From: a virus
IMG/VR virus record: IMGVR_UViG_3300045988_042083
Span: 1 to 40,199 of that record
Strand: one strand, 5' to 3'
Length of the DNA stretch: 40,199 bases
In this document: in pieces, positions 1 to 40,199 of the stretch
Numbering within the stretch: position 1 is the stretch's first letter
Layout of the letters: each line of letters begins with the position of its first letter
Made by a program: the position numbers and the translations under genes
Notes under the pieces: generated by a model
Seen by the model: only the letters and a program-made list of their open reading frames with translations
What the model was told of the DNA's origin: nothing
Databases searched by the model: none

Positions 1-119
1 GGCATACGCCGCGCGAAGTTGTTATGCTCCGCAACCCTAGCCTCAAGCTGTTGTAACCGATAATTCGTCAATTTGCTGCTGACGAGTATACCACCCAACG
101 AGCCACCAAGCGTCCCGAC
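1..119. repeat. 119-bp direct terminal repeat, identical to 40081-40199. Either a circular-assembly overlap or true terminal redundancy. Unique genome length 40,080 bp.
   Basis: Read directly: ggcatacgccgcgcgaagtt...ccaccaagcgtcccgac is present at both window ends. Confidence 0.95.
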
Positions 120-155
120 AAGCGATATAAGTGCCACGATTACTGTACTGTCCAT
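1..155 (-). CDS. 5' part of a 76-aa lysis-cassette protein with an N-terminal TM helix and a coiled coil (BhlA/UviB-like holin-type architecture). The ORF continues across the circular junction to 40005.
   Basis: ATG at 155-153 follows TAAGGAGGTGAG. Sequence MDSTVIVALISLVGTLGGSLGGILVSS (TM) then LQQLEARVAEHNNFARRMPVVEEQIKVINHRIEDLESEV. Missing from the ORF track only because the window ends split it. Confidence 0.6.
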   Translation of the reverse strand, partial: MDSTVIVALISLVGTLGGSLGGILVSSKLTNYRLQQLEARVAEHNNFARRM

Positions 156-8227: not shown

Positions 8228-8842
8228 CTATTCTTTGTACAGTGCCGCCACAGTGTCAGCATGAGCATTGGCGTATTCCATCTGCTTTGACAGCGGCATC
8301 TTTTCGAAGTCCGCTTTCGTCATAGCAGTACTGGTGTTAGGCGGTGTGTCCACGTGTGCGCCGCTGGTCTGGTCAGAAACGATGAAACCCGCCCAATCAC
8401 TTTTGATTGCTTCGGCAAGTTTGTCTGCGTCTACGAGTTTACCGTCCTTAACAGTCATGCCGCTGAAATCAGTAACTCTGAGTATTGCCTCCAGCCGCTT
8501 TTCATCAACATGCTGTCCTTTCAGCAAGTCTGTGTACAGTGCTTTCTTTGTCGAAAGCTCCTTTTCAGCCGCCACACTGGCTTTGAACTGCTCAAATGCT
8601 TCATGTTCCGCTGTGTACTTGGCTTCCCATTCGTCATTGGTTGTTGCTCTCAAAGCGTCCAACTCTTTCTGGACGTTCGGAAGCTTTTCTGCATCGGCTT
8701 TGTAAGTCGCAATTTCTTCCCGCAGCGCATTTATTGAGGTCACGTGTCCGTCAATAATGCTGTCGATTGCTTCTGTTATGTTTTCGGGGCTTACGCCAGC
8801 CTTGCTAAGCACTTCTTTGAGAAATGCCTTGGTTAACGCCAT
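8228..8842 (-). CDS. Scaffolding protein (204 aa from Met31 of the track ORF).
   Basis: MALTKAFLKEVLSKAGV...; coiled-coil and acidic, GP20-like. RBS AAAGGAAG before ATG 8842. The upstream 30 codons of the track ORF overlap the promoter. Confidence 0.75.
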   Translation of the reverse strand: MALTKAFLKEVLSKAGVSPENITEAIDSIIDGHVTSINALREEIATYKADAEKLPNVQKELDALRATTNDEWEAKYTAEHEAFEQFKASVAAEKELSTKKALYTDLLKGQHVDEKRLEAILRVTDFSGMTVKDGKLVDADKLAEAIKSDWAGFIVSDQTSGAHVDTPPNTSTAMTKADFEKMPLSKQMEYANAHADTVAALYKE

Positions 8843-8861
8843 TGTAATCTTCCTTTCTCTC

Positions 8862-8902: not shown

Positions 8903-8932
8903 ATTATACCATGTGCCGCATGCATTTGTCAA
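8903..8932 (-). promoter_or_regulatory. Late promoter P_scaf: TTGACA-N18-TGgTATAAT.
   Basis: Minus strand reads CTTGACAaatgcatgcggcacaTGGTATAATagtagta, about 55 nt before the scaffold ATG. Confidence 0.75.
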
Positions 8933-8968: not shown

Positions 8969-9020
8969 TCATTTGTATTGTATTGCACCCCTAAAGGGGT
9001 GTGCAATACAATACAAATGA
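8969..9020. repeat. Palindrome A: 23-bp arms, 4-nt loop, 2-nt bulge.
   Basis: tcatttgtattgtattgcacccc-taaa-ggggtgTGcaatacaatacaaatga. Sister element at 15160-15213. Confidence 0.9.
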
Positions 9021-9082
9021 CAAACTAACAGCCGCGAAATTGACATTTGTAGTCGATTTGTATTGCTACAAATAAGCGTTAA

Positions 9083-9116
9083 GGTCAACTCCGAAGCGAC
9101 TTTTCGGTGGTTGACC
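9083..9116 (-). terminator. Candidate intrinsic terminator of the terS-to-gp10 transcription unit.
   Basis: Compound hairpin GGTCAAC-CCGAA...TTCGG-GTTGACC, followed on the minus strand by TTAACGCTTATTTG. Lies 55 nt after the gp10 stop. Confidence 0.4.
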
Positions 9117-9171
9117 CTTTGACAATTGCAACTGTTTGTATTGTCAGCCGTCCGGCTGTTCATTTGACAGG

Positions 9172-9498
9172 TTATTCGCCGCCTTGCAATTCGCTTTTCA
9201 GTATGCTTCGGTACTTTTCCATGTGGTCTTCGGCTGCAGGTTTCAGATACGGCTGCGCGGGTGTGTTGACCGTCCCCATTTCAACGTACACGGCATAGTC
9301 CACATTCGTGCCGATGTAAGCAGCCTCGTCATCAGTGGTGTGGGTAATGCTGTTGCGCAACCTACCCGTGTCCACAGGGCATAACCGCTTTGCATATCCC
9401 TCGGCGGCTAAGCCTATCTTTTCTAATGCCCTCGCTTTAGCCTGTGAAATCCCGTCAAGTACTTCATCGGTGTGGTCTTCAATGTCGAAGTCAGCCAT
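9172..9498 (-). CDS. HK97 gp10-family head-tail protein (108 aa from Met37 of the track ORF).
   Basis: CPVDTGRLRNSITH...GTNVDYAVYVEMGT...AQPYLKPA motif set. RBS GAGGTG before ATG 9498. Confidence 0.7.
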   Translation of the reverse strand: MADFDIEDHTDEVLDGISQAKARALEKIGLAAEGYAKRLCPVDTGRLRNSITHTTDDEAAYIGTNVDYAVYVEMGTVNTPAQPYLKPAAEDHMEKYRSILKSELQGGE

Positions 9499-9603
9499 CA
9501 ATGTCACCTCTAATTCGGGAATGCGTTCTTTGGCGTTTCCGTGGCTTTTCCTTGCACGTGAACGGGTGTACACGTCCTTGTACACCCCTGCGATGCAATA
9601 TGC

Positions 9604-9635
9604 CAACGGAACGCAAGAGAAGCGCCTCTTCTGCG
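9604..9635 (+). repeat. Dispersed motif copy (type II, with an AGAAG/CTTCT mini-hairpin).
   Basis: CAACGGAACGCAAGAGAAGCGCCTCTTCTGCG on the plus strand, abutting the micro-ORF stop. Confidence 0.7.
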
Positions 9636-14476: not shown

Positions 14477-15040
14477 TTAATCGTCACCCGTATTCTTGTG
14501 GGGATCAGTGCTCTCCTGTGCAACGGAAGCCACAGGAGGGGCTTCTTCTGCGGCATTCTTAATCGTCACCATCATGCGCTTAGCCATGCTGATAGCTTCT
14601 GCATCGGTATCGATGGGGTCTTGAATAGCTCTCCACCTATCGGGTCTACGGGAGAATAGCCAGCTAAGACAGGCTTTGACATCGGGTGAAACGTGCTTTC
14701 TTATAACCTTGGTAGTCCGCATTTCACCCTCGACCAGCTCTTTGGTTACCTCGTCATATTCATAGCCTAAAGCCCTTTTCAGTAAAGCCTGCTCCACCTT
14801 GCCGTTGGTTACGTCTTTTGATATTTGCAACGCAGTTGCAAGTTCATCGCTTTCCTTAGTCCACCGCCACAAAGTCTTTGAAGTAACGCCGACATACTTT
14901 GCGGCAACCTCTTCAAAGGGTATACCCTCCCTGCGCCATTGGCTAATTAGGGTGATGCCGTCTGGAGATAGCCAGAAAGCTTTGCGGTCTTCCTTGCCTT
15001 TCTGACCGCTGGGGAAATCTATGTACGCCAATATAGTCAC
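14477..15040 (-). CDS. terS: Terminase small subunit (HTH type, ~185 aa).
   Basis: ...ISQWRREGIPFEEVAAKYVGVTSKTLWRWTKE... HTH. First gene after the late promoter and upstream of terL. Start is GTG 15040 or, with better RBS spacing, TTG 15031. Confidence 0.75.
   Translation of the reverse strand: MTILAYIDFPSGQKGKEDRKAFWLSPDGITLISQWRREGIPFEEVAAKYVGVTSKTLWRWTKESDELATALQISKDVTNGKVEQALLKRALGYEYDEVTKELVEGEMRTTKVIRKHVSPDVKACLSWLFSRRPDRWRAIQDPIDTDAEAISMAKRMMVTIKNAAEEAPPVASVAQESTDPHKNTGDD
14521..14553 (+). repeat. Degenerate dispersed motif copy (type II) inside the terS 3' coding region. Forms an inverted pair with 14450-14472.
   Basis: CAACGGAAGCCACAGGAGGGGCTTCTTCTGCGG; compare 9604-9635. Confidence 0.5.
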
Positions 15041-15083: not shown

Positions 15084-15113
15084 ATTATACCATACGGCGT
15101 GTGTATTTGTCAA
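15084..15113 (-). promoter_or_regulatory. Late promoter P_terS: TTGACA-N18-TGgTATAAT.
   Basis: Minus strand reads CTTGACAaatacacacgccgtaTGGTATAATactcgta. Near-identical to P_scaf. Confidence 0.75.
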
Positions 15114-15159
15114 GTAGTCTATTTGCCTGCACATTTGTATTGTTGCACTGCAGGCGTTG

Positions 15160-15213
15160 CATTTGTATTGTATTGTATCCTCCTTTTAGGAGGAATACAA
15201 TACAATACAAATG
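15160..15213. repeat. Palindrome B: 24-bp arms, 4-nt loop, 1-nt bulge.
   Basis: catttgtattgtattgtatcctcc-tttt-aggaggAatacaatacaatacaaatg. Confidence 0.9.
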
Positions 15214-15406
15214 ACAGCAAAACGCAGAATACAAACGACTACAATTGACAAGTGTAGTCCACAATTCTTTTAGAAAAAAGAAGCGGGCAATCGGTGTCAT
15301 TTGACAGTTGCATTGATTTGTATTCTGATTTGTATTGACGCAATTGCACCACAGCATTGCTGGCATGAAACTAATGTCACGGACTGTAACAGTGTTTTCA
15401 CAAGCA

Positions 15407-15526
15407 TTGTACAATCTGCATAACACGTATACCCTCTACGGGTTGTCTGATTGTGTAATCTGCTAATGCATTGTGCAATGTGCACAAAAACGGCATTCGA
15501 TAAGGTTTAAACTTTGTGCAACTTGC
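15407..15526 (+). promoter_or_regulatory. Array of four 13-nt direct repeats, TTGTRYAAYNTGC, ending 3 nt before the -35 of P1 (candidate operators).
   Basis: Copies at 15407 ttgtacaatctgc, 15451 ttgtgtaatctgc, 15471 ttgtgcaatgtgc and 15514 ttgtgcaacttgc. Spacings are 44, 20 and 43 nt. Confidence 0.6.
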
Positions 15527-15529
15527 TAA

Positions 15530-15559
15530 TTGACAAAAGGGTACTTGCTGTGGTATAAT
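15530..15559 (+). promoter_or_regulatory. Early promoter P1: TTGACA-N18-TGgTATAAT.
   Basis: TTGACAaaagggtacttgctgTGGTATAAT. Confidence 0.8.
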
Positions 15560-15611
15560 TTTTATAGGGGGTTGAATGACCCAGAACGACATATTAACGG
15601 AGGAAATAACA

Positions 15612-16181
15612 ATGACAACTTTAATCGAATTCGAACTCAACGGCATCAAGTACAACGAGAGCAACGGCAGATATTACAAGACCGAGAACGGCAAGAAGAC
15701 CCGCATTGGCAAGGCGGCATACGAAGAGGCAGCGGCTGAATTCACAGAGATGGTCACGGCAGCGAAGAGGCAGGACATGGAACAGGACGAAATCGATATC
15801 ATCACAGCCGAGATGACCGACAAGCCTGTTGAACCCACCAAGGTGAAGAAACCGAGCAAGCCGCGCAAATCCAAGGACATCGCACACGAGAGCAAATATG
15901 GCGTGACACTCACGGCGAAGCAGGTGGATTTCCTTTGGCATCTCCCGGACAGCAACTTCTGGACAGACGGAAAGGACAGCGAAATCTGGGTTGACTGCCT
16001 TTGCGATGAAATCGGCGGGCAGTTCTTCAACAAGCCGATGACGGTTGGCGCGATGATTTCGACCCTCTGCGAAAAGAAGTTGGGCGTTAGATGCCGCCAG
16101 AAAGTGAACGGCAGGACGGCAACAAGCTTCAAGCTGACAGACCTCGGCAAGATGGTTATATCGGAACTGGGCATCTATTGA
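15612..16181 (+). CDS. Early hypothetical protein (189 aa) with a C-terminal winged-helix-like domain, paralogous to that of 18103-18924.
   Basis: ATG 15612 follows ACGGAGGAAATAACA. C-terminal ...TVGAMISTLCEKKLGVRCRQK...FKLTDLGKMV. Confidence 0.65.
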   Translation: MTTLIEFELNGIKYNESNGRYYKTENGKKTRIGKAAYEEAAAEFTEMVTAAKRQDMEQDEIDIITAEMTDKPVEPTKVKKPSKPRKSKDIAHESKYGVTLTAKQVDFLWHLPDSNFWTDGKDSEIWVDCLCDEIGGQFFNKPMTVGAMISTLCEKKLGVRCRQKVNGRTATSFKLTDLGKMVISELGIY

Positions 16182-17742: not shown

Positions 17743-17772
17743 TTGACAGAAGTAAACCTCGTGTGGTATAAT
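17743..17772 (+). promoter_or_regulatory. Promoter P2: TTGACA-N18-TGgTATAAT, bracketed by an 11-bp inverted repeat.
   Basis: CTTGACAgaagtaaacctcgtgTGGTATAAT. Inverted repeat CCTCGTGTGGT (17757-17767) / ACCACACGAGG (17784-17794). Confidence 0.75.
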
Positions 17773-17812
17773 AGTTATGGAGCACCACACGAGGTACGGT
17801 AGGAGGGTTAAC

Positions 17813-18102: not shown

Positions 18103-18924
18103 ATGATAGTAACAAGCATGGGTGGAGAGGTAATCTCCATTCTGGAAAACAAGCGCGGAGTGTTGATAGATTCCTGCGGGAGGAATTGGCTGCGCGATGC
18201 GTCAAAGGACAAGCCCGAACAGGGCATGGCGGGGTACTCCCGGCAGGACAGCAAGGACGTTATAATCTTTACGAAGCCCGAATTGGTGAGGGTATGCAAG
18301 GGCAACACGGCAATCCAGCAACTTACTACAGTTGCAGAAGCGCGTGATTTTGCTAGTCGACTGGAGGCGGACTTACGGGAAATCGCGGATAACTGGAACG
18401 ACCAGCAGTTGCGGGAGGTGCTAATTGAAGCGGACAGTAAAGGTTGTTCTGCGTTAAACCTGTTAATATCTAGGTTGCAGAAAGAGAGTGACCAGTTACG
18501 CGCTTCAGCTGCAGCTGAAACCGAAGAATGTATCTCCTGTGAGCGGGACGGTACTTCCCTTGCACAGGAGAGCGCAGGAGGTATACAAGCCCCACCCCAT
18601 GAGAATACCCCAAAGAAAGTCAAAGGAAACGCCTTTGAGGGCATGTTCGGTGAAGAACTGGTTCGACTAACATCTGGACAGCTTGCTATTATGCATGCAA
18701 TATTTAGCACCCTCGACCCCAAATCCGGTGCTAGCCCCACAGCAGATATAACGCAGTATGTGAGCAGTGAGATGTCGGCAGTATCGGCAGGAGCTACAAT
18801 CGCTACGCTTAAGGAGAAGAAGCTCATAGTAGTCGATAAATCTTCTCCTAAAAAGGTAGTGCGGCTGACTAATCTCGGTGCACAGGTATGCGTGACATGT
18901 TTTACACAAGGAAAGGAGGGGTGA
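18103..18924 (+). CDS. 273-aa hypothetical protein with a C-terminal winged-helix-like domain.
   Basis: RBS AGGAGGAAAA. C-terminal ...SAGATIATLKEKKLIVVDKSSPKKVVRLTNLGAQV aligns with the C-terminus of 15612-16181. Confidence 0.65.
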   Translation: MIVTSMGGEVISILENKRGVLIDSCGRNWLRDASKDKPEQGMAGYSRQDSKDVIIFTKPELVRVCKGNTAIQQLTTVAEARDFASRLEADLREIADNWNDQQLREVLIEADSKGCSALNLLISRLQKESDQLRASAAAETEECISCERDGTSLAQESAGGIQAPPHENTPKKVKGNAFEGMFGEELVRLTSGQLAIMHAIFSTLDPKSGASPTADITQYVSSEMSAVSAGATIATLKEKKLIVVDKSSPKKVVRLTNLGAQVCVTCFTQGKEG

Positions 18925-19088
18925 TGGTGGACAAACCGTGTTGTAAATGTTGTAAGTATTGCAATAAATCCCGATGCAACGATGAATTCCAATGGCGGTG
19001 TGTTTATTTACACAAGTGGGTATCACCAAACCAGAGTTGCAAGGGGTTTTCAGCGGGTGAATATAAAACAAGGAGGGTTGACAAGTGA
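18924..19088 (+). CDS. 54-aa Cys-rich protein.
   Basis: ATG overlaps the previous TGA, after AAAGGAGGGG. MVDKPCCKCCKYCNKSRCNDEFQWRCVY.... Confidence 0.5.
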   Translation: MVDKPCCKCCKYCNKSRCNDEFQWRCVYLHKWVSPNQSCKGFSAGEYKTRRVDK

Positions 19089-22534: not shown

Positions 22535-22564
22535 TTGACAAGAGGCATATTGCTGTGGTATAAT
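22535..22564 (+). promoter_or_regulatory. Promoter P3: TTGACA-N18-TGgTATAAT.
   Basis: CTTGACAagaggcatattgctgTGGTATAAT. Confidence 0.8.
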
Positions 22565-22584: not shown

Positions 22585-22974
22585 ATGAAAGAATTGGCGA
22601 GGACATGCGCCTATTGTGGCAAGCCGTTCCTGTGTGAACGTGCGTCAATATACAAGGTTAAGGCGCGCAGACACGTAAAACGCATGTGTTCGTACACGTG
22701 CTGGACTAAATATAAGGAGGAATTAACAGTGAGCAAAGCAAAAATCAAGAACAGACTGAGGGAATACCGCGACCGTTCGCGGCTAACCTTGCAGGAAGTC
22801 AGCATTCTGACGGGCTACGATGTAACTACTATCAGCCGTCACGAATCTGGGCAGCGCAGCCTGTCGGACGAGGCGATGAAGAAGTACGCTGCGCTTTACA
22901 AGGTTGAAACTCATGAACTGCTGGACTTGAGAGGTAATGATGACGATGAACAGTGTGCTGGAACAGGCGAATGA
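22585..22974 (+). CDS. XRE-family HTH regulator with an N-terminal Cys-cluster extension (129 aa).
   Basis: CAYCGKPF...CSYTCW, then LREYRDRSRLTLQEVSILTGYDVTTISRHESGQRSLS. Confidence 0.75.
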   Translation: MKELARTCAYCGKPFLCERASIYKVKARRHVKRMCSYTCWTKYKEELTVSKAKIKNRLREYRDRSRLTLQEVSILTGYDVTTISRHESGQRSLSDEAMKKYAALYKVETHELLDLRGNDDDEQCAGTGE

Positions 22975-24751
22975 ATACATAGACCAAGGCTGGTCAATTT
23001 TGCCCGTCAAGCCGTCTGAAAAGCGTCCTTACATGACCAACTGGTTACAGTACCAGCACGTGAAAGCGACTAAGGAGATGGCAGAGAATTGGTTTACCTC
23101 TCTGATGGGCGCGGGTGTTGGAATGGTAACTGGCAGAATTTCTGGTGTTGTGGTATTGGACATAGAAAGTTACTGCAAGATACCGATTGAGGAATTGCTT
23201 CGCAGATATCCGACACAGATGGTTTCGCGGACGGGTTCGGGTGGATACCACCTGTTCTATCTCTACCCTAATGATGTGCCGAAAATCGCCAACAGGGTTG
23301 GGATATTTGAGGGTGCAGATATTCGTGCTGACGGTGGATTTATTGTGTTGCCGCCGACACGTCACCCTAACGGCAGACTGTACGAATGGGTGAAGACAGG
23401 CTTTCCTGGAGTATTTCCGAAAGCTCTTCTTGACATTCAGAGCCAACCCAAGGCACAAGGGGACGGGTGGATTACAGAGGCTCTTCGCGGCGTTTCGGAG
23501 GGCGGGAGAAACGACACTTGCGCAAGGCTTGCGGGATATTTTTTCCGAAAAGGTCTGAACGCGGACATAGTGGAAGCGTTACTGACCGAATGGAACGAAC
23601 GTAACGACCCGCCGCTCCCGATGCGAGAAATGCGCACGACTATTAAATCCATCGAGCGCTCATGTGCTATTGTGGGTGGACAATTCACAAGCGTTGAGTT
23701 TGAAGATGACACAAAGACCGCTTCGAAAGCCCCGGAAAATTCGACATTCGACTTGTTGAAAATGCGCGATTATGTCAAGGGATACGGGAGCGAGGGTGCG
23801 TCATGGTTGGTGCAGGACTGGTTGCCGGACAAATCCATTACATTCCTTGTTTCACCACCGGAAAGCTACAAGACATGGATACTTCTCGACCTTGCAGTGT
23901 CAATCAGTACCGGACTACCCTTTCTGGGACAGGCGCAAGTCAACAAGACCGGGGCTGCGATGATAATTCAACAGGAGGACAGCCATGGCGGACTGACAGA
24001 GCGTTTGGCGTTAATAGCCGAGCAGAAAATGGGTGTGACGGCGAACCTTGGAAAAGACGTGTGGCAGATACCCTGCATTCCGGATTTGCCGATATACATA
24101 CACCCGTCAAGAATGCTTCGCTTTGACAACGAAAAAGTCTTGAAAGAGCTTGAGGAGCAAATAAAGTTGATTGAGCCAAAGGTCATATTGATTGACCCAT
24201 TATATTCTACCACTTCTGGTGTGGATAACTACATGGCTGACCTCGCTAACCAGATGATGATACTCAAGACATGGCGCGATAAATACGGGTGTTCATTTGT
24301 GATTTCCCACCATTCCAAGAAAAACCTCGACCCCGATAGCACAGCCCGTGAGGATTCGTGGGGTTCACAGTTCCTTAACGCGTTCCTTGAAGCGGGCTGG
24401 CAGGTAAGGCGAAATCAGAAGCTTGCACCGAATGAGGTGGTGGTTAGGCGGCATTCAAAGGTTATGGGCAATCAAGCACCGATTTCCTTAACATTCGATA
24501 TATCGACTACATACCCCATGAAATACCAAGTTACCGCTCGACAGTACGAAACTAGCAACACCCCCGCGCCAGCCCCCGCACAGGCGTACATACTGGAGGC
24601 TTTCGGGGAGCGCGAATTTTCGCAGAAAGACGTGGTTAACGCCACGGGTAAATCACCCTCTACGGTAAGCCGACAGATAAAGCAATTGGAGGCTACGGGA
24701 GCAATTGAAAAGATGCCAAATGGAAAGTGGCGCAGAAAGGACGACGTGTAA
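22937..24751 (+). CDS. Bifunctional primase-polymerase with a PriCT-like region, a RepA/AAA_25-type helicase ATPase and a C-terminal wHTH (604 aa).
   Basis: N-terminal GWSILPVKPSEKRPY. Then GGRNDTCARLAGYFFRKG. Then FLVSPPESYKTWILLDLA. Then SPSTVSRQIKQLEATGAIEK. Confidence 0.8.
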   Translation: MMTMNSVLEQANEYIDQGWSILPVKPSEKRPYMTNWLQYQHVKATKEMAENWFTSLMGAGVGMVTGRISGVVVLDIESYCKIPIEELLRRYPTQMVSRTGSGGYHLFYLYPNDVPKIANRVGIFEGADIRADGGFIVLPPTRHPNGRLYEWVKTGFPGVFPKALLDIQSQPKAQGDGWITEALRGVSEGGRNDTCARLAGYFFRKGLNADIVEALLTEWNERNDPPLPMREMRTTIKSIERSCAIVGGQFTSVEFEDDTKTASKAPENSTFDLLKMRDYVKGYGSEGASWLVQDWLPDKSITFLVSPPESYKTWILLDLAVSISTGLPFLGQAQVNKTGAAMIIQQEDSHGGLTERLALIAEQKMGVTANLGKDVWQIPCIPDLPIYIHPSRMLRFDNEKVLKELEEQIKLIEPKVILIDPLYSTTSGVDNYMADLANQMMILKTWRDKYGCSFVISHHSKKNLDPDSTAREDSWGSQFLNAFLEAGWQVRRNQKLAPNEVVVRRHSKVMGNQAPISLTFDISTTYPMKYQVTARQYETSNTPAPAPAQAYILEAFGEREFSQKDVVNATGKSPSTVSRQIKQLEATGAIEKMPNGKWRRKDDV

Positions 24752-28489: not shown

Positions 28490-28552
28490 CTTATATGTAG
28501 ATGGTGAACGAAGCGTTCACCGTTGCTCATATGGGTGATGTCAATAAACCAC

Positions 28553-28582
28553 TTGACAGGAATAAACCTCATGTGGTATAAT
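28553..28582 (+). promoter_or_regulatory. Promoter P4: TTGACA-N18-TGgTATAAT. A ~50-nt duplicate of P2.
   Basis: CAATAAACCACTTGACAggaataaacctcatgTGGTATAATGGTAGTGGAG. Confidence 0.8.
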
Positions 28583-28603
28583 GGTAGTGGAGGAGGTGAT
28601 AGC

Positions 28604-29161
28604 ATGACAAGCAAGGAGGAATTTAAATCCATCGCGGAACTTATTCACCGCGATGGTATTACCGATTTGATGAAGTGGATTGAGGGCACGGATTTCTACA
28701 CTGCACCAGCATCGACCCGGTTTCATGGGGCGTATGAGGGTGGACTTGTAGAGCATTGCGTAGCAGTGTACCGCCGTCTGGACGAGTTGAATGACTTCTA
28801 TGACGAGGTAAACGCAACTCCCGAAACCATTGCAATTGTGGCGCTGTTTCACGATTTGTGCAAAATTGGGACGTATAAGACCGAAATGCGCTGGCGAAAG
28901 GACGCGAACAACCAGTGGGAGCAATACCCCACTTACAAGCGCGATGAAGATTTCAAGTTTGGTGGTCACGGTTCGAAATCGCTTTATCTGGTGCAGAACT
29001 TCATCAAGTTGACCCCCGAAGAGGCTATTGCGATTAACTGCCACATGGGGCAGTGGGACGCGACTACATACAGCGATGTTTCTTCGGCGTTCGAAAGTTG
29101 CCCGTTGGCATGGGCATTACATGTGGCTGACGAAGCCGCAAGCTACCTTGATAAAACATAA
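28604..29161 (+). CDS. HD-domain phosphohydrolase (185 aa). Candidate dATP-clearing enzyme (DatZ analogue).
   Basis: STRFHGAYEGGLVEH, ALFHDLCK, GGHGSKS, LHVADEAAS. ATG follows GGAGGAGGTGATAGC. Confidence 0.7.
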   Translation: MTSKEEFKSIAELIHRDGITDLMKWIEGTDFYTAPASTRFHGAYEGGLVEHCVAVYRRLDELNDFYDEVNATPETIAIVALFHDLCKIGTYKTEMRWRKDANNQWEQYPTYKRDEDFKFGGHGSKSLYLVQNFIKLTPEEAIAINCHMGQWDATTYSDVSSAFESCPLAWALHVADEAASYLDKT

Positions 29162-30890: not shown

Positions 30891-32660
30891 ATGCTGGTAA
30901 ACACAATAGAGGGGCTTGAACATGTGATGCCCCGGCTGTTAGCTTGCACCGACCCTTGCGTGGATACCGAAACTACTGGCTTGTCGATTTACGGCAACGC
31001 CAGTAGGGCGAGGGATAAAGTTATCGGCATCTCGGTTGACGTTGGCGAAGAAGCTTTCTATTTTCCGTTTCGCCACCTACAGGGGGTAAATTTGCCGATG
31101 GGGTGTATGGAGTTCTTTCGCCCGTATCTTTCAGACCCTAATAGGACTTATGGCGGGTGGAATTACAATTACGACCTCCACATGATGGCTTTCGATGGTA
31201 TTGACATCGCGCCAAATTTTGAAGACGCGATGCTGGCTATGCACCTATTCAACGAGAATGAACCCGATTTCAAGCTAAAGCCAACTGCCGACAGATATCA
31301 CATCGGCGATGGTTCTTTGCAAGAGTCGATACTTGAGGACAAGGTGTTCAACGAGTGTCAGCGGCTGGGGCTGGAGTGCAGCAAATCACCAAGAGCACCG
31401 AACAACGTTAAATCTATGATGTACGTATTGCCCCCGGAGGACGTAGAACCTTATGCTTGTGATGACGTGCGGCTTACACGTCAAATCTTGGATTTGCTGC
31501 GACCCGCATTAAAGGAACAGGGGTTGTATGATATCTGGAAACAGGTTAACTACTATTCTTACATAGTCACGTTGATGGAACATCGCGGTATGCATGTTGA
31601 TGTTGACATGATAAAGCGATACCAGATAGAAGCAGTAGACCACCTCGCGGACGCGCAGAAGCGGCTGAATGAAGCGGCTGGGTTTGAGTTAAACCCAAAT
31701 AGTTCAAAAAAGGTTTGTGAATTTCTAGGCGTGGAATCATCAGCGGCTGAAAAGCTTGTGGAGGTGATAGACGCGGGTGGGAAAGATGCCGAAAATGCTA
31801 AATTGGTGCAGGAAGCTAGAGGTTGGAAATCAGTGGACAGCAGGTATTACACACCTTATCTCCAGTTGATTGACGAACACGACACGCTCCACTGTTCGCT
31901 GAACTTAATCGGTACGTACACCGGACGGTTATCATGCACCAACCCGAACCTGCAAGCAGTGGCGAAGCATACAGATATCTTCAAAGTCAAGGACGTGTTC
32001 ACAGCACGACCCGGTTTTACAATGATACAGGCGGACTACAAGCAAGCGGAAATGCGTCTTGTGACGCATTACACCAAAGACCCCATCATGAAAGAACTAA
32101 TCGAATCTGACGCGGATTTGCACTCGGCAACGGCTGAAAGGCTGAATATACCGCGAAATGCAGCTAAGCGCATTAACTTCTCCGTTATATACGGCATCGG
32201 GTACAAACACCTTGCCAGCAATCTTCGGGTAGAAGAGAGCGTAGCCAAGGATTATCTCGATAAGTACCACAATCTCTACCCCGGCTTTAAGAAGCTCATG
32301 TACAAATGTGAAGACTTCGCCAAAGCTAATGGGTATATTAGGCTGTGGACGGGACGAATGCGGCATTTCAACACGCCGGAGTGCGACCCCCATAAGGCAA
32401 TGTCAAACTTAATACAGGGCGGCGTTGCTGAAATTGTCCGCGTGGCAATATCCAGACTTTATCCCGCTATTCGGGATATTGGAGGGAACATGCTACTGCA
32501 GGTTCACGACTCAATCATCTTTGAAGTACCCGATGATAAACTCCAGATAGCCTTACCGACCATTAAGATGGTTATGGAGGATTATGACTTCGACCCCAAA
32601 CCCGGTGTCGATATCGAATATGGCAAATCATGGGGTACATTCGAAAAGTGGAAGCCATAA
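30891..32660 (+). CDS. Family-A DNA polymerase with a 3'-5' exonuclease domain and no 5' nuclease domain (589 aa).
   Basis: ExoI VDTETTGL. Motif A ADYKQAEMRL. Motif B RNAAKRINFSVIYG. Motif C LQVHDSIIFE. Confidence 0.9.
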   Translation: MLVNTIEGLEHVMPRLLACTDPCVDTETTGLSIYGNASRARDKVIGISVDVGEEAFYFPFRHLQGVNLPMGCMEFFRPYLSDPNRTYGGWNYNYDLHMMAFDGIDIAPNFEDAMLAMHLFNENEPDFKLKPTADRYHIGDGSLQESILEDKVFNECQRLGLECSKSPRAPNNVKSMMYVLPPEDVEPYACDDVRLTRQILDLLRPALKEQGLYDIWKQVNYYSYIVTLMEHRGMHVDVDMIKRYQIEAVDHLADAQKRLNEAAGFELNPNSSKKVCEFLGVESSAAEKLVEVIDAGGKDAENAKLVQEARGWKSVDSRYYTPYLQLIDEHDTLHCSLNLIGTYTGRLSCTNPNLQAVAKHTDIFKVKDVFTARPGFTMIQADYKQAEMRLVTHYTKDPIMKELIESDADLHSATAERLNIPRNAAKRINFSVIYGIGYKHLASNLRVEESVAKDYLDKYHNLYPGFKKLMYKCEDFAKANGYIRLWTGRMRHFNTPECDPHKAMSNLIQGGVAEIVRVAISRLYPAIRDIGGNMLLQVHDSIIFEVPDDKLQIALPTIKMVMEDYDFDPKPGVDIEYGKSWGTFEKWKP

Positions 32661-32816: not shown

Positions 32817-33221
32817 TTGATTATAGCGGTGGATTTTGATGGTGTTCTCTGCGACCACCAATTTCCAAATATCGGTGCGCCGAAATACGAAGTCATCTCG
32901 TTGGTGCGGCAGCTGATTGACCTTAAGCAAGAGGTAGTTCTCTGGACATCGAGAACAGATGCCGAACTGCAAAATGCGGTAGATTGGTGTGACAATTACG
33001 GCTTACATTTTTGCGCCGTGAACGAGAACGCGCCAAGCAACATCGCCAAATATCGGGAGAAATACCCGAATGGAACACGAAAGGTATTTGCTGATGTTTA
33101 TGTTGATGACCATTCACTTGGCTACATAATCAACAGAAAAGCGGACACAACAAAAAGCATAACAGCACAGTTAAGTGCTCTTATAACAGTAATCAAATCG
33201 ACACAGGAGGAAAAGGTATGA
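32817..33221 (+). CDS. HAD-superfamily phosphatase-like protein (134 aa), possibly a deoxynucleotidase.
   Basis: TTG start after TAAGGAGGTGG. Motif I IAVDFDGVL, then VLWTSR and a YVDD-type motif. Its stop overlaps the purZ ATG. Confidence 0.55.
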   Translation: MIIAVDFDGVLCDHQFPNIGAPKYEVISLVRQLIDLKQEVVLWTSRTDAELQNAVDWCDNYGLHFCAVNENAPSNIAKYREKYPNGTRKVFADVYVDDHSLGYIINRKADTTKSITAQLSALITVIKSTQEEKV

Positions 33222-34315
33222 ACACAAACAGAGGTAAGATGACAGTAGTTGTCGGCGGACAGTACGGCAGCGAGGGTAAGGGTGCGATTGTAAGACACAT
33301 CGCGGACGAATATCAGGTGCATGTTAGGGTTGGTAGCCCTAACGCAGGACACACTATCTACTGGAACGGCGAGAAACACGTCATGCAGTCTATCCCTTGT
33401 GGGTGGATAAACCCCGATGCAAAGATAGTGATTGGTAGAGGTGCGCTGCTCAACATGAAGCAGCTCATGTCCGAACTGGAACACATCGAGAGATACTACC
33501 CCGACTTCAAAAAGCGTCTTTACATAGACGCTAAGGCGGGTATCCTTGACGAGAAATTCCACCAGCAGGAGGGTGGGGTAGACGGCGAAATGCACCGCAG
33601 GATAGGCTCTACTGGTGAGGGTGTGGGTGTTGCCCGTGTTGCCCGTATAAACCGTGACCCGGAGCAGTTCCACATGTTTGAAAGCGTAGCTGACGAATAT
33701 GGGCTGTCCAAGTGCATTACCGACAACACACCCGAATTGCTTGCCAGATGGCAGGGCGATGGTATGAATATACTGATTGAGGGAACACAGGGGTCTGCGC
33801 TTTCTCTGCTCCACAGTTTTTACCCGTACTGCACCAGCATCGACACCAATGCGGCAGGTATCATCTCCGAGGTAGGCATCGCCCCGTCAAGGGTAACTGA
33901 TGTATTGATGGTGGTACGCACATTCCCCATCAGAGTTGCAGGAAATTCTGGACCTATCGCGAATGAAACCACATGGGAAGAAGTGTCAAAGCTGGCGGGA
34001 AGACCTGTCACCGAGAAGACCACTGTTACGCACAAGACCCGCCGTGTGGCTTTCTGGGACGATGCCGTATTCGAAACGGCTTGTCTGCTGAATGAGCCGA
34101 CAGAAATTGCGCTCACATTCGCCGACTACATCGACCCCGACCTTGCTAATATATCTGGAAATGTACCGTCTATCGAAGCACTGCAGAGTTCCAAGCTTTC
34201 TGCTTTCATCGACAGCTGCTCTGCCGAATTAAAGGAAAAGCTTCGGTACATCAGCACAGGCGCAGATTCCGTAATCAACATCAACAAGCCGGAGGCACAG
34301 AACGATGGCGAATAA
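33218..34315 (+). CDS. purZ: PurZ-like N6-succino-2-amino-2'-deoxyadenylate synthase (PurA superfamily, 365 aa).
   Basis: GGQYGSEGKGAIV, GSPNAGHT, GTQGSALSLLHSFYPYCTSIDTNAAG, FPIRVAGNSGP, TTVTHKTRRVAFWD. Confidence 0.8.
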   Translation: MNTNRGKMTVVVGGQYGSEGKGAIVRHIADEYQVHVRVGSPNAGHTIYWNGEKHVMQSIPCGWINPDAKIVIGRGALLNMKQLMSELEHIERYYPDFKKRLYIDAKAGILDEKFHQQEGGVDGEMHRRIGSTGEGVGVARVARINRDPEQFHMFESVADEYGLSKCITDNTPELLARWQGDGMNILIEGTQGSALSLLHSFYPYCTSIDTNAAGIISEVGIAPSRVTDVLMVVRTFPIRVAGNSGPIANETTWEEVSKLAGRPVTEKTTVTHKTRRVAFWDDAVFETACLLNEPTEIALTFADYIDPDLANISGNVPSIEALQSSKLSAFIDSCSAELKEKLRYISTGADSVININKPEAQNDGE

Positions 34316-34745
34316 TGTGAAATATGTTGATTTCGTTCTTGACGAGGGTGCACACCGCCCCGTCAAGCAACACACAGGCGATGCGGGTTGGGATTTGTAC
34401 ACCAGCGAAACCTGCGTTATCGAACCCGGTGAAACCAAAGATGTGCATACAGGCGTGAGAATGCGCATGCCGCCTTGCCTCTTCGCCCGTATCACGGGCA
34501 GGTCATCGAGCCTCCGCAAGCACAACATTCTAGTGAACGAGGGCATTATCGACAACGGCTACACGGGCGAGTTATTTGTCTGCGCTCACAATCTCGGAAA
34601 TCAGCCCATCACTATCGAAAAGGGTATGCGGATTGCACAGGTACTTTTCCACACCATAGAAGATGTGCGTTGGAGCGAGGTTGACGAATTAAAACCCTCC
34701 GCAGATAAGCGTGGGGACGCTGGTTTCGGTAGTACTGGAAAGTGA
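34305..34745 (+). CDS. dut: Trimeric dUTPase.
   Basis: GDAGWDLY, GRSSSL, GIIDNGYTGEL, RGDAGFGSTGK. Confidence 0.9.
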   Translation: MANNVKYVDFVLDEGAHRPVKQHTGDAGWDLYTSETCVIEPGETKDVHTGVRMRMPPCLFARITGRSSSLRKHNILVNEGIIDNGYTGELFVCAHNLGNQPITIEKGMRIAQVLFHTIEDVRWSEVDELKPSADKRGDAGFGSTGK

Positions 34746-34834: not shown

Positions 34835-35236
34835 ATGAAGAACTGTAAGGAATGTGACGATTTTATGTGCGGCGGACAGGGTTCAGACAATGTTTCTATG
34901 ACATGTGGAAACACCACGCGTGAATTTAAGGATTTCGGCACTGGTGCAATACGCGAGGATAAGACCGGAAAGGGCAGGTGCGACCTGCTCCCACCGTGCG
35001 CTCTCATTCGCCTTTCTAAGCATTTCGAAAAGGGTGCGACAGACCACGGAGAACGCAACTGGGAAAAAGGCATACCGATGCACAGCTTCTTGGATTCCGC
35101 ACTTCGTCACCTGTTCAGGTATCTTGACGGAATGGACGATGAAGACCACCTTTGCGCAGCCGCTTGGAACATAATATGCGCCATGTGGACAGAAGAAAAG
35201 CACCCCGAAATGCAAGATATCCCCACGCGCAGGTGA
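34835..35236 (+). CDS. mazZ: MazZ-like dATP/dGTP diphosphohydrolase domain protein (133 aa).
   Basis: RCDLLPPCALIRLSKHFEKGATDHGERNWEKG...LDSALRHLFRYLDGMDDEDHLCAAAWNIICAMW. Matches my recollection of the dGTP_diPhyd_N/DUF5664 pattern. Confidence 0.65.
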   Translation: MKNCKECDDFMCGGQGSDNVSMTCGNTTREFKDFGTGAIREDKTGKGRCDLLPPCALIRLSKHFEKGATDHGERNWEKGIPMHSFLDSALRHLFRYLDGMDDEDHLCAAAWNIICAMWTEEKHPEMQDIPTRR

Positions 35237-35240
35237 GCCA

Positions 35241-35546
35241 ATGAGCAACCGCAACAAACGATTGGAATATGATGGGGTAGTGCAACCGATACTGCGCTAC
35301 CTCAATTCTCTGCCGAATACCAAGGCAATCAATATTCACGGGGGCGTTTTCTGTGAGCGAGGAACGCCAGACATCATAGGGTGCATTGATGGGCGTACTA
35401 TACTGCTAGAATGCAAGAGAAGCCCAACGGAAGCGGCAGAAAAAATACAGGAGTGGCGCATGGCGGAGTGGCGCGGTGCAGGTGCAATCGTGGCTAGGGT
35501 TGACGATGTTAGCCAAGTCAAAGAATTGCTTGAGAAGAACAAATAA
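35241..35546 (+). CDS. VRR-NUC-type PD-(D/E)XK nuclease (101 aa).
   Basis: RGTPDIIGCIDGRTILLECKRSP...QEWRMAEWRGAGAIVARV. Confidence 0.65.
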   Translation: MSNRNKRLEYDGVVQPILRYLNSLPNTKAINIHGGVFCERGTPDIIGCIDGRTILLECKRSPTEAAEKIQEWRMAEWRGAGAIVARVDDVSQVKELLEKNK

Positions 35547-35569
35547 GGGTGGGGATTTATCCCCCACCC
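35547..35569. terminator. Bidirectional intrinsic terminator between the convergent plus and minus transcription units.
   Basis: GGGTGGGGAtttaTCCCCCACCC, flanked by AAATAA on one side and TCGTTTATT on the other. Confidence 0.8.
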
Positions 35570-35573
35570 TCGT

Positions 35574-35876
35574 TTATTCGATGTTGTTAACTTTTCGCAT
35601 AACCGCGTTGTATAGCCGTGGATTTGTAGCTTGCAGAGTAGTCATCAGTTCGTCAACCACTGCAAACACCTGTACACTGTCCTTACCCGACACAGCTTGC
35701 AAAAAGTCCGTGTTGCCGCTCACATTAAGCGGTACGGGCTGGACAACGGGTGTGGCGTTTGTGAGATGGTCACGAACAACATAGAGTGGTGCAAGTTTTT
35801 CTATAACTGAATACGTGGTATCGCGTTTTGTTTCCAGCATCAAAATCTCGTCATTTATAGTGTCAAGGTTTAGCAT
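35574..35876 (-). CDS. 100-aa hypothetical protein; last gene of the accessory block.
   Basis: Intact ORF ending 5 nt from the terminator. Confidence 0.55.
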   Translation of the reverse strand: MLNLDTINDEILMLETKRDTTYSVIEKLAPLYVVRDHLTNATPVVQPVPLNVSGNTDFLQAVSGKDSVQVFAVVDELMTTLQATNPRLYNAVMRKVNNIE

Positions 35877-38469: not shown

Positions 38470-38497
38470 AAGGCAGGGTGTAGGAACACCCTGCCTT
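38470..38497 (-). terminator. Intrinsic terminator ending the late/lysis operon.
   Basis: AAGGCAGGGTG-6 nt-CACCCTGCCTT, followed on the minus strand by GCTTTGTAT. Confidence 0.65.
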
Positions 38498-38521: not shown

Positions 38522-38731
38522 TTATACATGTTTGTATAACTGCCTCTCACGTCTATACACAATATTCTTAACTTGACGCACCGACATGTCAACTTTCTCT
38601 GCAAGTGCTTCAAAGGTTAACCCATCAAGCAACCGCAGTTTTAAAATGCGCCTGTCACGCTCTGAAAACACCCATTCGTCAATCAATCTCTCCCACTCTG
38701 AGCGGGGCTTTCCATAGTCTTCTATCTTCAT
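38522..38731 (-). CDS. Sigma-70 region-4-like HTH regulator (69 aa).
   Basis: SERDRRILKLRLLDGLTFEALAEKVDMSVRQVKNIVYRRERQL. Confidence 0.65.
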   Translation of the reverse strand: MKIEDYGKPRSEWERLIDEWVFSERDRRILKLRLLDGLTFEALAEKVDMSVRQVKNIVYRRERQLYKHV

Positions 38732-40015: not shown

Positions 40016-40199
40016 GATGTACCTCACTTTCCAAATCTTCAATGCGGTGGTTGATAACTTTTATCTGCTCTTCAACCACTGGCATACGCCGCGCGAAGTT
40101 GTTATGCTCCGCAACCCTAGCCTCAAGCTGTTGTAACCGATAATTCGTCAATTTGCTGCTGACGAGTATACCACCCAACGAGCCACCAAGCGTCCCGAC
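40005..40199 (-). CDS. 3' part of the 76-aa TM + coiled-coil protein whose start lies at 155 (the same gene wrapped by the circular junction).
   Basis: ...RRMPVVEEQIKVINHRIEDLESEVHREI*. Stop TGA at 40005-40007. Confidence 0.6.
   Translation of the reverse strand, partial: VGTLGGSLGGILVSSKLTNYRLQQLEARVAEHNNFARRMPVVEEQIKVINHRIEDLESEVHREI
40081..40199. repeat. Second copy of the 119-bp terminal repeat.
   Basis: Identical to 1-119. Confidence 0.95.

Follow-up and report, generated by a model that had tools for sequence, protein, structure and literature searches.

A candidate late-promoter control element with a covarying, hairpin-forming centre in a phage genome and its relatives

The genome of an uncultured gut phage, IMGVR_UViG_3300045988_042083 of IMG/VR, which we analyzed over its full 40,199 nucleotides (hereafter the window), carries two related palindromes of 52–54 bp, A (8969-9020) and B (15160-15213), one directly upstream of each of its two late promoters. 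An earlier note, made from the letters of the window alone, had drawn attention to this pair. Comparison with relatives revealed arms that are nearly invariant and a centre that varies in both sequence and length while staying self-complementary. The pair most likely represents a control site for late genes or for replication, of the kind of upstream late-promoter or iteron control elements and set apart from these by its covarying, polar, hairpin-forming centre and by its duplication at every late promoter. It appears not to have been described previously: we found no published description, and Rfam contains no matching family. Our preferred reading, which we put forward tentatively, is that each palindrome forms the core of a protein-bound, cruciform-capable control module for late promoters.

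Anatomy of the palindromes and their modules

Both palindromes are built on the same arm sequence, CATTTGTATTGTATTG, as the earlier note had reported. This 16-mer has exactly four copies in the window, two in A (8970-8985 and 9004-9019) and two in B (15160-15175 and 15198-15213, where a TAT extension continues the arms), and allowing up to three mismatches gives six matches versus 0.57 expected, a number reached in none of 100 shuffles of the window. The apex of A reads CACCCC-TAAA-GGGGTG(TG), in which GCAC-CCC and GGGGTGTGC enclose a TAAA loop and two surplus bases form a 2-nt bulge on the promoter-distal arm. The apex of B reads TCCTCC-TTTT-AGGAGGA, in which TATCCTCC and GGAGGAATA (a stretch also written AGGAGGAATA) enclose the TTTT of a 3–4-nt loop and one surplus base forms a 1-nt bulge, again on the promoter-distal arm. 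The tips, CACCCC/GGGGTG in A and TCCTCC/GGAGGA in B, differ in the compensatory manner that the note had described, a contrast that the relatives discussed below strengthen, and its account of a 4-nt loop and a small bulge in each palindrome also stands, with the loop of B counted as three or four nucleotides. The stems span 22–25 bp (21–36 bp across the elements of relatives), and their G+C-rich part lies at the apex, not at the base. Folded as single-stranded DNA, either strand of either palindrome reached -23.5 to -26.4 kcal/mol (z = -8.5 to -11.1), which none of 200 shuffles equaled, and among all inverted repeats of the genome with a loop of ≤30 nt the two ranked first and second by a wide margin.

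Palindrome A lies upstream of a minus-strand promoter at 8903-8932, which serves the scaffold gene and the rest of the head-tail-lysis operon, and palindrome B lies upstream of a minus-strand promoter at 15084-15113, which serves terS and the packaging operon. Both are consensus promoters of the sigma-A/sigma-70 type (TTGACA-18-TATAAT with TG) that score 12/12 with an 18-nt spacer and a TG extension. In agreement with the placement that had been proposed upstream of two near-identical promoters, the edge of the palindrome is 37 bp (A) or 47 bp (B) from the -35 hexamer, and its centre is ~62 bp (A) or 73 bp (B) upstream of the -35 edge. On its other side B faces a divergent plus-strand early promoter of the consensus type (15530-15559), so that it sits between this promoter and that of terS. 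Perfect promoters of the form TTGACA-N18-(TG)gTATAAT number six in the genome, versus 0.01 expected, with the four that are not late all on the plus strand (15530-15559, 17743-17772, 22535-22564 and 28553-28582). A palindrome precedes both of the late-strand perfect promoters and none of the four early-strand ones, and the cores are otherwise indistinguishable; the phage thus appears to use one uniform host-type promoter class for early and late genes.

The arms are themselves inverted arrays of an iteron, which can be written either as TTGTA pentamers or as the 10-mer ATTTGTATTG, and the same iteron is scattered in the flanks, with single copies between each palindrome and its promoter as well as on the palindrome's far side. 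In module A, free iterons lie at 9056-9065 (ATTTGTATTG, plus strand) and 9134-9143 (GTTTGTATTG). In module B, one lies between the palindrome and the terS promoter, within a small inverted repeat, GCCTGCA...TGCAGGC (15133-15142, ATTTGTATTG, plus strand), and two stand in tandem on the early side (15316-15337, ATTTGTATTC and ATTTGTATTG, plus strand). The modules also share two plus-strand boxes, AATTGACAnnTGTAGTC (9037-9054 and 15242-15259), which holds an orphan TTGACA without a -10 element, and TCATTTGACAG (9160-9170 and 15297-15307). Given these shared flanking iterons and two boxes in matching order, A and B are not isolated hairpins but the cores of paralogous modules spanning ~220–270 bp. 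The 9-mer TTTGTATTG occurs as nine exact copies in the window, versus 0.58 expected, and eight of the nine lie in the two modules. Likewise, the density of TTGYA pentamers peaks only at the modules, apart from a false cluster at 18904-19053, which we rejected as a third site because it falls in a Cys-rich open reading frame whose TGT and TGC codons mimic the motif.

Several further features of the modules deserve mention. On the plus strand, the modules contain five orphan TTGACA hexamers that no -10 element accompanies (9040, 9119, 9164, 15245 and 15301), versus ~1 expected there; a 69-residue sigma-region-4-like protein (38522-38731) could read them. The arms are A+T-rich, as is a conserved dyad of a T-run and an A-run in the middle of module B (TTCTTTTAGAAAAAAGAA, 15266-15282), and the palindrome centre is G+C-rich in most members. 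In a relative, contig IMGVR_UViG_3300045988_010343, the T/A dyad is flanked by GCCGCCG/CGGCGGC, and the contig breaks exactly there (end of L055, start of L140). Compact TTGTRCAA-type palindromes (GCATTGTACAATCTGCA, GCATTGTGCAATGTGCACAA and TTTGTGCAACTTGC) lie at 15404-15530 next to the early promoter, of which they are probably the operator, and are conserved in relatives (L140 and L073).

Distribution and covariation in relatives

Relatives came from viral contigs of gut and rumen, taken from IMG/VR and from metagenomes of the human gut and other sources. We scanned them with a pattern consisting of the arms with any centre of 8–34 nt, and protein-anchored searches added further elements; (TATTG)n microsatellite-like repeats and unrelated palindromes were discarded after reading (L081-L083, L086, L088-L093 and others, and three genome hits). 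The ~40 non-redundant elements that were recovered occupy only two positions, as located by tblastn of the window proteins, namely the gap between the neck-like and scaffold genes (A-type) and the region upstream of terS (B-type), and these positions are kept in phages whose proteins are 40–85% identical to those of the window. Both positions are visible in 12 genomes (the window, _010343, _089165, _088524, _143063, L077, L080, L155, L156, L157, ERZ780041.40 and L079), and 11 of these have both elements. The remaining one, L079, keeps A and has no B on its contig, where the divergent promoters at the B position are only 47 bp apart. A promoter of the consensus or extended -10 type, directed away from the element, follows in most relatives at 33–57 bp from the edge of the core, and motifs of the GTTGYA/TTGYATTG type reach 9–16 hits per 120 bp.

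Cultured phages were another matter: neither the modules (blastn) nor the winged-helix protein introduced below (tblastn) had a match in 50,697 phage records. For the capsid protein, the closest cultured relative is phiCD38-2, a phage of C. difficile (52% identity). The element is missing from outgroups whose head genes are related, as observed before the scaffold gene in phiCD38-2 and upstream of terS in L071 and L072.

Covariation in related phages, which had been suggested as a check, was evident from the centres themselves. These include CACCCC, CTCTCT, TCCTCC, TCCC, CCCCC, ATTCT, ATTCC, ATCTTC, GATTT, ATGTTC and CCATTC, all of which pair with the opposite arm, and close relatives differ by single, clean compensatory swaps (for example, CCTCC/GGAGG in the window versus CCCCC/GGGGG in L025 and L139). 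To count such changes, we aligned 36 elements with the late gene on the right and took the pairs from a structure that we had specified. Of the cells in these columns 91% are paired, and 14 pairs are doubly changed. Doubly changed cells number 81, versus 32.1±5.6 in shuffles, none of 500 of which reached that count, and versus 12–35 when the partner column was slid by 1–3 positions. Arm positions covary as well, TTGTATTG and TTGCATTG alternating with a complementary change opposite. Covariation in 36–40 independent relatives thus bears out the proposal that the structure, and not only the sequence, is under selection.

Two other properties of the elements are constrained. Of the elements, 28 have a bulge of 1–2 nt in the promoter-distal arm, 3–7 pairs from the loop, and none has it in the proximal one; in the other 11–12 the stem is unbulged or interrupted by a symmetric internal loop. 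In a distant lineage, the bulge of two B-type elements is on the opposite arm. Between the invariant 13-mers, the spacer measures 17 or 18 bp in 22 of the 27 elements that fit the exact pattern, despite varying lengths of stem, loop and bulge, which suggests that the length of the duplex is constrained too. These observations bear on the possibility that the palindrome has no function of its own, the centre being kept complementary by hairpin-templated strand switching and the arms being adjacent operator copies or recombination linkers at module boundaries. Long perfect arms do favor intrastrand template switching, which corrects quasi-palindromes, and some relatives appear to have exchanged the packaging module that lies between A and B, as in the case of differing TerS types with identical arms. 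However, strand switching would erase the bulge, yet 28 of the 40 elements keep it on the same arm despite their different apices; the spacer held at 17–18 bp and the retention of the element at two positions over deep divergence also speak against it. We therefore regard this explanation as quite improbable.

In one lineage (L155-L157), which we call the GTTCC lineage, the same two positions are occupied by palindromes whose arms consist of GTTCC(A/G) units, as in CGTTCCATCGTTCCAT...ATGGAACGATGGAACG. The flanks are filled with the GTTCC(A/G) unit too, giving at least 10 sites per module, and a few CAATACAAC motifs remain; the arms of L155 are hybrid. Arms and flanking sites switch together at both A and B, which suggests that they are recognition sites of the same kind, as would be expected for one trans-acting factor. 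Within each palindrome of the window (8973-9016 and 15163-15210) an inner TTGYAY and a TACAAT on the opposite arm are 17–18 nt apart, a weak promoter-like layout in both directions that a promoter scan flagged at 9005-8977. Because this layout is missing from the GTTCC lineage, it may be incidental. In one member of that lineage, L156, the interval from the terS promoter to terS, downstream of the B-type element, holds three tRNA genes (Ile-TAT, Gln-TTG and Asn-GTT, at 9161-9500).

A role in DNA or in RNA

A stem of 22–25 bp is very stable, and bulged hairpins are typical of protein-binding RNAs, so we considered whether the palindromes act as hairpins in late mRNA that terminate or insulate transcription, are processed by RNase III or signal antitermination. 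Palindrome A is downstream of the packaging operon and within reach of its read-through. However, neither stem is followed by a T-run on either strand, in keeping with the earlier note's observation that U-tracts are missing; the sequences that follow the stems are ACAAACT and AAAAACA for A and ACAGCAA and CAACGCC for B. Lacking a T-run within 0–2 nt of the stem and called by no terminator scan, they are not ordinary intrinsic terminators, with which they share a stable intergenic stem-loop and from which they differ in their G+C-rich apex, in the position of B and in the absence of a wobble bias. A separate G+C-rich terminator-like hairpin on the minus strand (9083-9116), kept in relatives, already stands between the stop codon of the neck-like gene and A. 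As had been noted, no minus-strand transcription is expected to enter B from upstream: it lies between divergent promoters, and a promoter scan recognized no other site reading into it. Rfam 15 gave no matches at the gathering threshold on either strand of the whole window, and a tRNA scan of the window was also empty.

A further indication came from the mismatches in the 36 aligned elements, which on the late-sense strand comprised 35 G·T and 34 A·C and so showed no preference for wobble pairs on one strand. The absence of such a bias, together with the position of B between divergent promoters, makes a role in RNA unlikely, and a structure selected at the level of DNA would be expected to give this pattern. 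We accordingly favor a role in DNA, whether regulatory, replicative or both, and consider the RNA hairpin very unlikely. A reading of the AGGAGGA in the apex of B as a Shine-Dalgarno sequence was also rejected, the nearest ATG being 15–16 nt away and other apices not being purine-rich in that way.

A candidate binding protein

The product of the first early gene (15576-16181, plus strand) is conserved and has, in its C-terminal part, a winged helix of the PadR/MarR-like type. It has no match in Pfam, PHROG or NCBIfam, although more than 600 homologues exist (606 hits, on several hundred contigs), one of which is named SlyA-like by one source. An AlphaFold model built on a 35-sequence alignment comprises a small beta domain at the N terminus, a long helix, a Lys-rich linker that is disordered and the C-terminal winged helix, the last predicted with a pLDDT (predicted local distance difference test score) of about 75–90. 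Searching with the fold recovered only PadR and MarR regulators, and these weakly (best E = 7e-3), and a sequence search of the winged-helix family against PDB gave only a marginal match to MarR (E = 0.73).

The gene is the divergent neighbor of module B in most relatives examined and lies elsewhere in the genome of L079, and the outgroups without the protein (phiCD38-2, L071 and L072) are also without the element. Its recognition helix, PMTVGAMISTLCEKGL, is nearly invariant, which fits the invariant TTGTA arms. These associations point to the early winged-helix protein as the best candidate binder of the iterons. An attempt to pin the binder by co-variation failed, in that the helices of both this protein and the C terminus of the PrimPol-helicase (22937-24751) are constant while the iterons switch. 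A divergent paralogue of the winged-helix domain is encoded ~2 kb downstream (18103-18924 in the window; 5125-5400 in L142, 5125-5391 in L144, 6420-6740 in L148 and 5178-5441 in L149), and this paralogue and the sigma-region-4-like protein are possible readers of the other boxes.

The small terminase subunit TerS was rejected as the binder, because identical arms go together with freely varying sequences of its helix-turn-helix (SKTLWRWTKES, SKTAFFHWYKES, DPRTFRAWRKKC and others). The same observation counts against the iteron arrays being a packaging signal, that is, pac-like sites for the small terminase next to terS. Such a role is suggested by the position of B immediately upstream of terS in most relatives examined, and P1 and SPP1 are examples of phages whose pac sites consist of short repeated motifs on either side of a central region. 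Yet a second full copy lies 6.2 kb away, upstream of the scaffold gene, which would give two sites per genome, and the relative that lacks B keeps A. Among the explanations that we weighed, we give this one the least credence. Nor do the palindromes qualify as cos or telomere-resolution sites, since the centre is not a true dyad (having an asymmetric 3–4-nt loop and a bulge), the two copies in each genome differ, and the assembly is circular.

Control of late promoters or initiation of replication

In the reading that we prefer, one module stands directly upstream of each late promoter, that of the packaging operon and that of the head-tail-lysis operon. An early, sequence-specific DNA-binding protein of the phage, for which the product of 15576-16181 is the best candidate, would load on the iteron arrays at both promoters. 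The resulting nucleoprotein complex would decide the timing of these promoters, because their cores are identical to those of the early ones, and it might do so with either sign, by early repression with later relief (for example, through titration by replicating genomes) or by activation. The centre would be read as pairing and not as sequence: kept self-complementary, it could allow the element to switch between linear duplex and cruciform or hairpin, driven in vivo by negative supercoiling behind diverging polymerases or by passage of a replication fork. Extrusion would then alter both the geometry of protein binding and the local superhelical tension ~60 bp from the -35 element.

A number of observations weigh against this reading. 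The element shows no helical phasing with its promoter, the distance from the centre to the -35 element being ~55–79 bp in the TTGTA group and ~140 bp for B of a distant lineage, and from a centre near -95 to -110 RNA polymerase is a long way off for direct contact. Promoters that match the consensus need no activator, and upstream of -35 is an unusual place for a repressor. Because an operator bound as duplex needs no self-complementary centre, regulation alone leaves the best-supported feature of the element unexplained. In addition, the L079 contig is without the B element, the recognition helix PMTVGAMISTLCEKGL is unchanged in the GTTCC lineage, where the arms switched, and the late timing of the two operons is something that we infer from their gene content.

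The most serious rival, which we consider possible but doubtful, is that the modules are one or two iteron-type origins of replication, with the arrays binding an initiator (the early winged-helix protein or the C terminus of the PrimPol-helicase), the palindrome opening or folding to load the helicase-primase, and the strong flanking promoters activating the origin through negative supercoiling. Many iterons in both orientations surround a hairpin-forming core, the clustering of short repeats typical of such origins is present (8/9 copies of TTTGTATTG lie in the modules), and selection acts at the level of DNA with no strand bias. The modules are the only non-coding stretches of the genome longer than 200 bp, and B lies between divergent promoters, where the GC skew changes sign. 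The phage also encodes a PrimPol-helicase with a MarR-like C terminus, a family A polymerase, a Sak4-like ATPase and a DUF669 protein, and the single element kept by L079 is what would be expected if one origin suffices.

Precedents for such an arrangement exist. SPP1 (oriL/oriR) and P4 (ori/crr) have origins with two loci, and in RSF1010 oriV the iterons are accompanied by hairpins, the ssi sites (ssiA and ssiB), that are read by a primase of PrimPol's superfamily. Together with the SaPI origin, these resemble the present system in having clusters of repeats in both orientations and two loci kilobases apart, in the presence in the genome of a primase-helicase with a C-terminal DNA-binding domain, and in hairpin-forming DNA. 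They differ in that both loci here are tied to late promoters with fixed polarity, and in that the centre here is G+C-rich without a conserved loop or nick sequence.

Against an origin, the position and polarity of both copies, directly before a late promoter, do not change among very divergent phages, and A sits within the late gene block. The switch in GC skew is explained equally well by the change in the direction of transcription, the recognition helix of the PrimPol winged helix is likewise unchanged in the GTTCC lineage, where the iterons switch, and a centre that is G+C-rich in most members is not easily melted. The two readings are not exclusive, because iteron-binding initiators often double as regulators and one protein could do both jobs. 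All readings other than late-promoter control and an origin together carry somewhat less weight than the former and somewhat more than the latter, which includes some chance, small though not negligible, of something that we have not considered.

Comparison with known systems

The nearest functional analogue of a late-promoter control module is the switch of phi29, in which the early protein p4 binds inverted repeats, CTTTTT-N15-AAAATG, between the early A2c and A2b promoters and the late promoter A3 (PMC3100819); the 'hairpin' of that system is a DNA bend induced by the protein and not intrastrand pairing. Both systems have a small early phage protein (a candidate, in our case), inverted-repeat sites between divergent early and late promoters and upstream of the late one, and reliance on host RNA polymerase throughout. 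They differ in the fold of the protein, p4 having an N-hook and our candidate a winged helix, and in the sequence of the sites; reading modules A and B for the p4-type motif CTTTTT-N15-AAAATG did not reveal it. Furthermore, the late promoter of phi29 is without a -35 element, whereas those of the window match the consensus at 12/12 positions, the p4 sites are not self-complementary through the centre and form no hairpins, and a second copy here serves an internal late promoter.

Dyads upstream of every late promoter, and of no early one, also characterize P2/P4 and Mu. The Ogr/Delta sites of P2/P4, TGT-N12-ACA, lie near -55. Four late promoters, dependent on the C protein, are listed for Mu (PMC4461284). 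In these phages the sites abut or overlap the -35 element of intrinsically weak promoters, whereas the present element is three times larger and is centred about -95 to -110 of consensus promoters.

Centromere and operator arrays such as R1 parC-ParR, pSM19035 omega and the inverted repeats of N15 resemble the modules in their short repeats beside promoters, in palindromes dispersed over a phage genome and in possible operator function. The N15 repeats recognized by SopB are four in number, IR1-4, and dispersed (PMC7205306). The freely covarying centre is a feature of the present element and is not known from these sites, and among about 50 open reading frames scanned with Pfam, PHROGs or NCBIfam we found no ParA, ParB, ParR, omega-like or ribbon-helix-helix protein.

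With the promoters of phage N4 the element would share the use, proposed here, of a DNA hairpin extruded from supercoiled duplex as a transcription signal. In N4, a giant virion RNA polymerase reads hairpin promoters whose stem measures 5–7 bp and whose loop has 3 nt. Stems of 21–36 bp do not fit this type, and scans of the window proteins revealed no RNA polymerase gene. Bulged hairpins occur as well in integron attC and CTX attP sites, but no tyrosine recombinase was found in the window.

Probable 2-aminoadenine and implications

The genome carries a set of genes typical of genomes that contain the Z base, 2-aminoadenine (28523-29161, 30891-32660, 33218-34315, 34305-34745 and 34835-35236), comprising a PurZ-like protein, a MazZ-like protein, an HD-domain protein, a family A polymerase and a dUTPase. 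The PurZ-like short adenylosuccinate synthetase matches NF038379 at 248 bits, under the 300-bit cut-off of that model, the MazZ-like dATP/dGTP diphosphohydrolase matches PF18909, and the family A polymerase has a partial match to DpoZ. Further genes encode ThyX, a Mom-like protein and a D12 methyltransferase. From this gene content, the genome probably carries 2-aminoadenine in place of adenine. If so, the nominally A+T-rich arms would pair as strongly as G+C, which would make hairpin formation unusually favorable and the A+T-rich DNA not easily melted.

A stronger proposal joins these strands: a protein-decorated cruciform or hairpin that senses supercoiling or passage of a fork, times otherwise constitutive promoters and possibly starts replication, in phages that apparently contain 2-aminoadenine. 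We consider this unlikely, but it would have consequences if true. Development would be timed by DNA secondary structure and not by a new sigma factor or a classical activator, and if cruciform formation is part of the mechanism, this would be a rare regulatory use of DNA secondary structure in vivo, the more so given the probable 2-aminoadenine.

Other implications extend beyond this proposal. For most uncultured gut phages the logic of switching from early to late genes is not known. Because one uniform class of perfect host-type promoters serves all genes here, the timing must be written in the flanking DNA, and the palindrome element, which is conserved, polar and structurally constrained, is the only candidate for this role. 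Its signature can be used to search for the late promoters, and perhaps the origin, in a large group of Clostridia-type siphophages. It is also a clean natural instance of covariation in a hairpin of DNA rather than RNA, and it points to a candidate partner, a protein family that is unannotated and has more than 600 members.

Other features of the genome

The first and last 120 bases of the window (1-120 and 40080-40199) are identical, indicating a complete circular, or circularly permuted, genome of ~40.08 kb. The late genes run along the minus strand in the order terS (14477-15031, probably starting with the TTG at 15031), terL, portal, a Mu F-like minor head protein and the neck-like protein (9172-9606), followed by module A, the scaffold gene (8228-8844, minus strand, with a likely ATG start at 8844, and with homologues annotated Phage_scaffold in relatives), the major capsid and tail genes and, across the circle junction, holin-like and amidase genes. 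Early genes occupy the plus strand from 15576 to about 35800. Profile scans of the window found no integrase or recombinase, and the phage looks strictly lytic.

Two of the early-strand promoters have features of their own. A perfect 12-bp inverted repeat (ACCTCGTGTGGT / ACCACACGAGGT, 17756-17795) spans the -10 element of the promoter at 17743, and this promoter shares the spacer AAACCTCRTGTGG with the one at 28553 (28553-28582); the two may constitute a separately regulated 'middle' class. Ordinary terminator-like hairpins were found at 35537-35579, where the early and late strands converge, and at 38470-38497, downstream of the gene for the small sigma-region-4-like protein.

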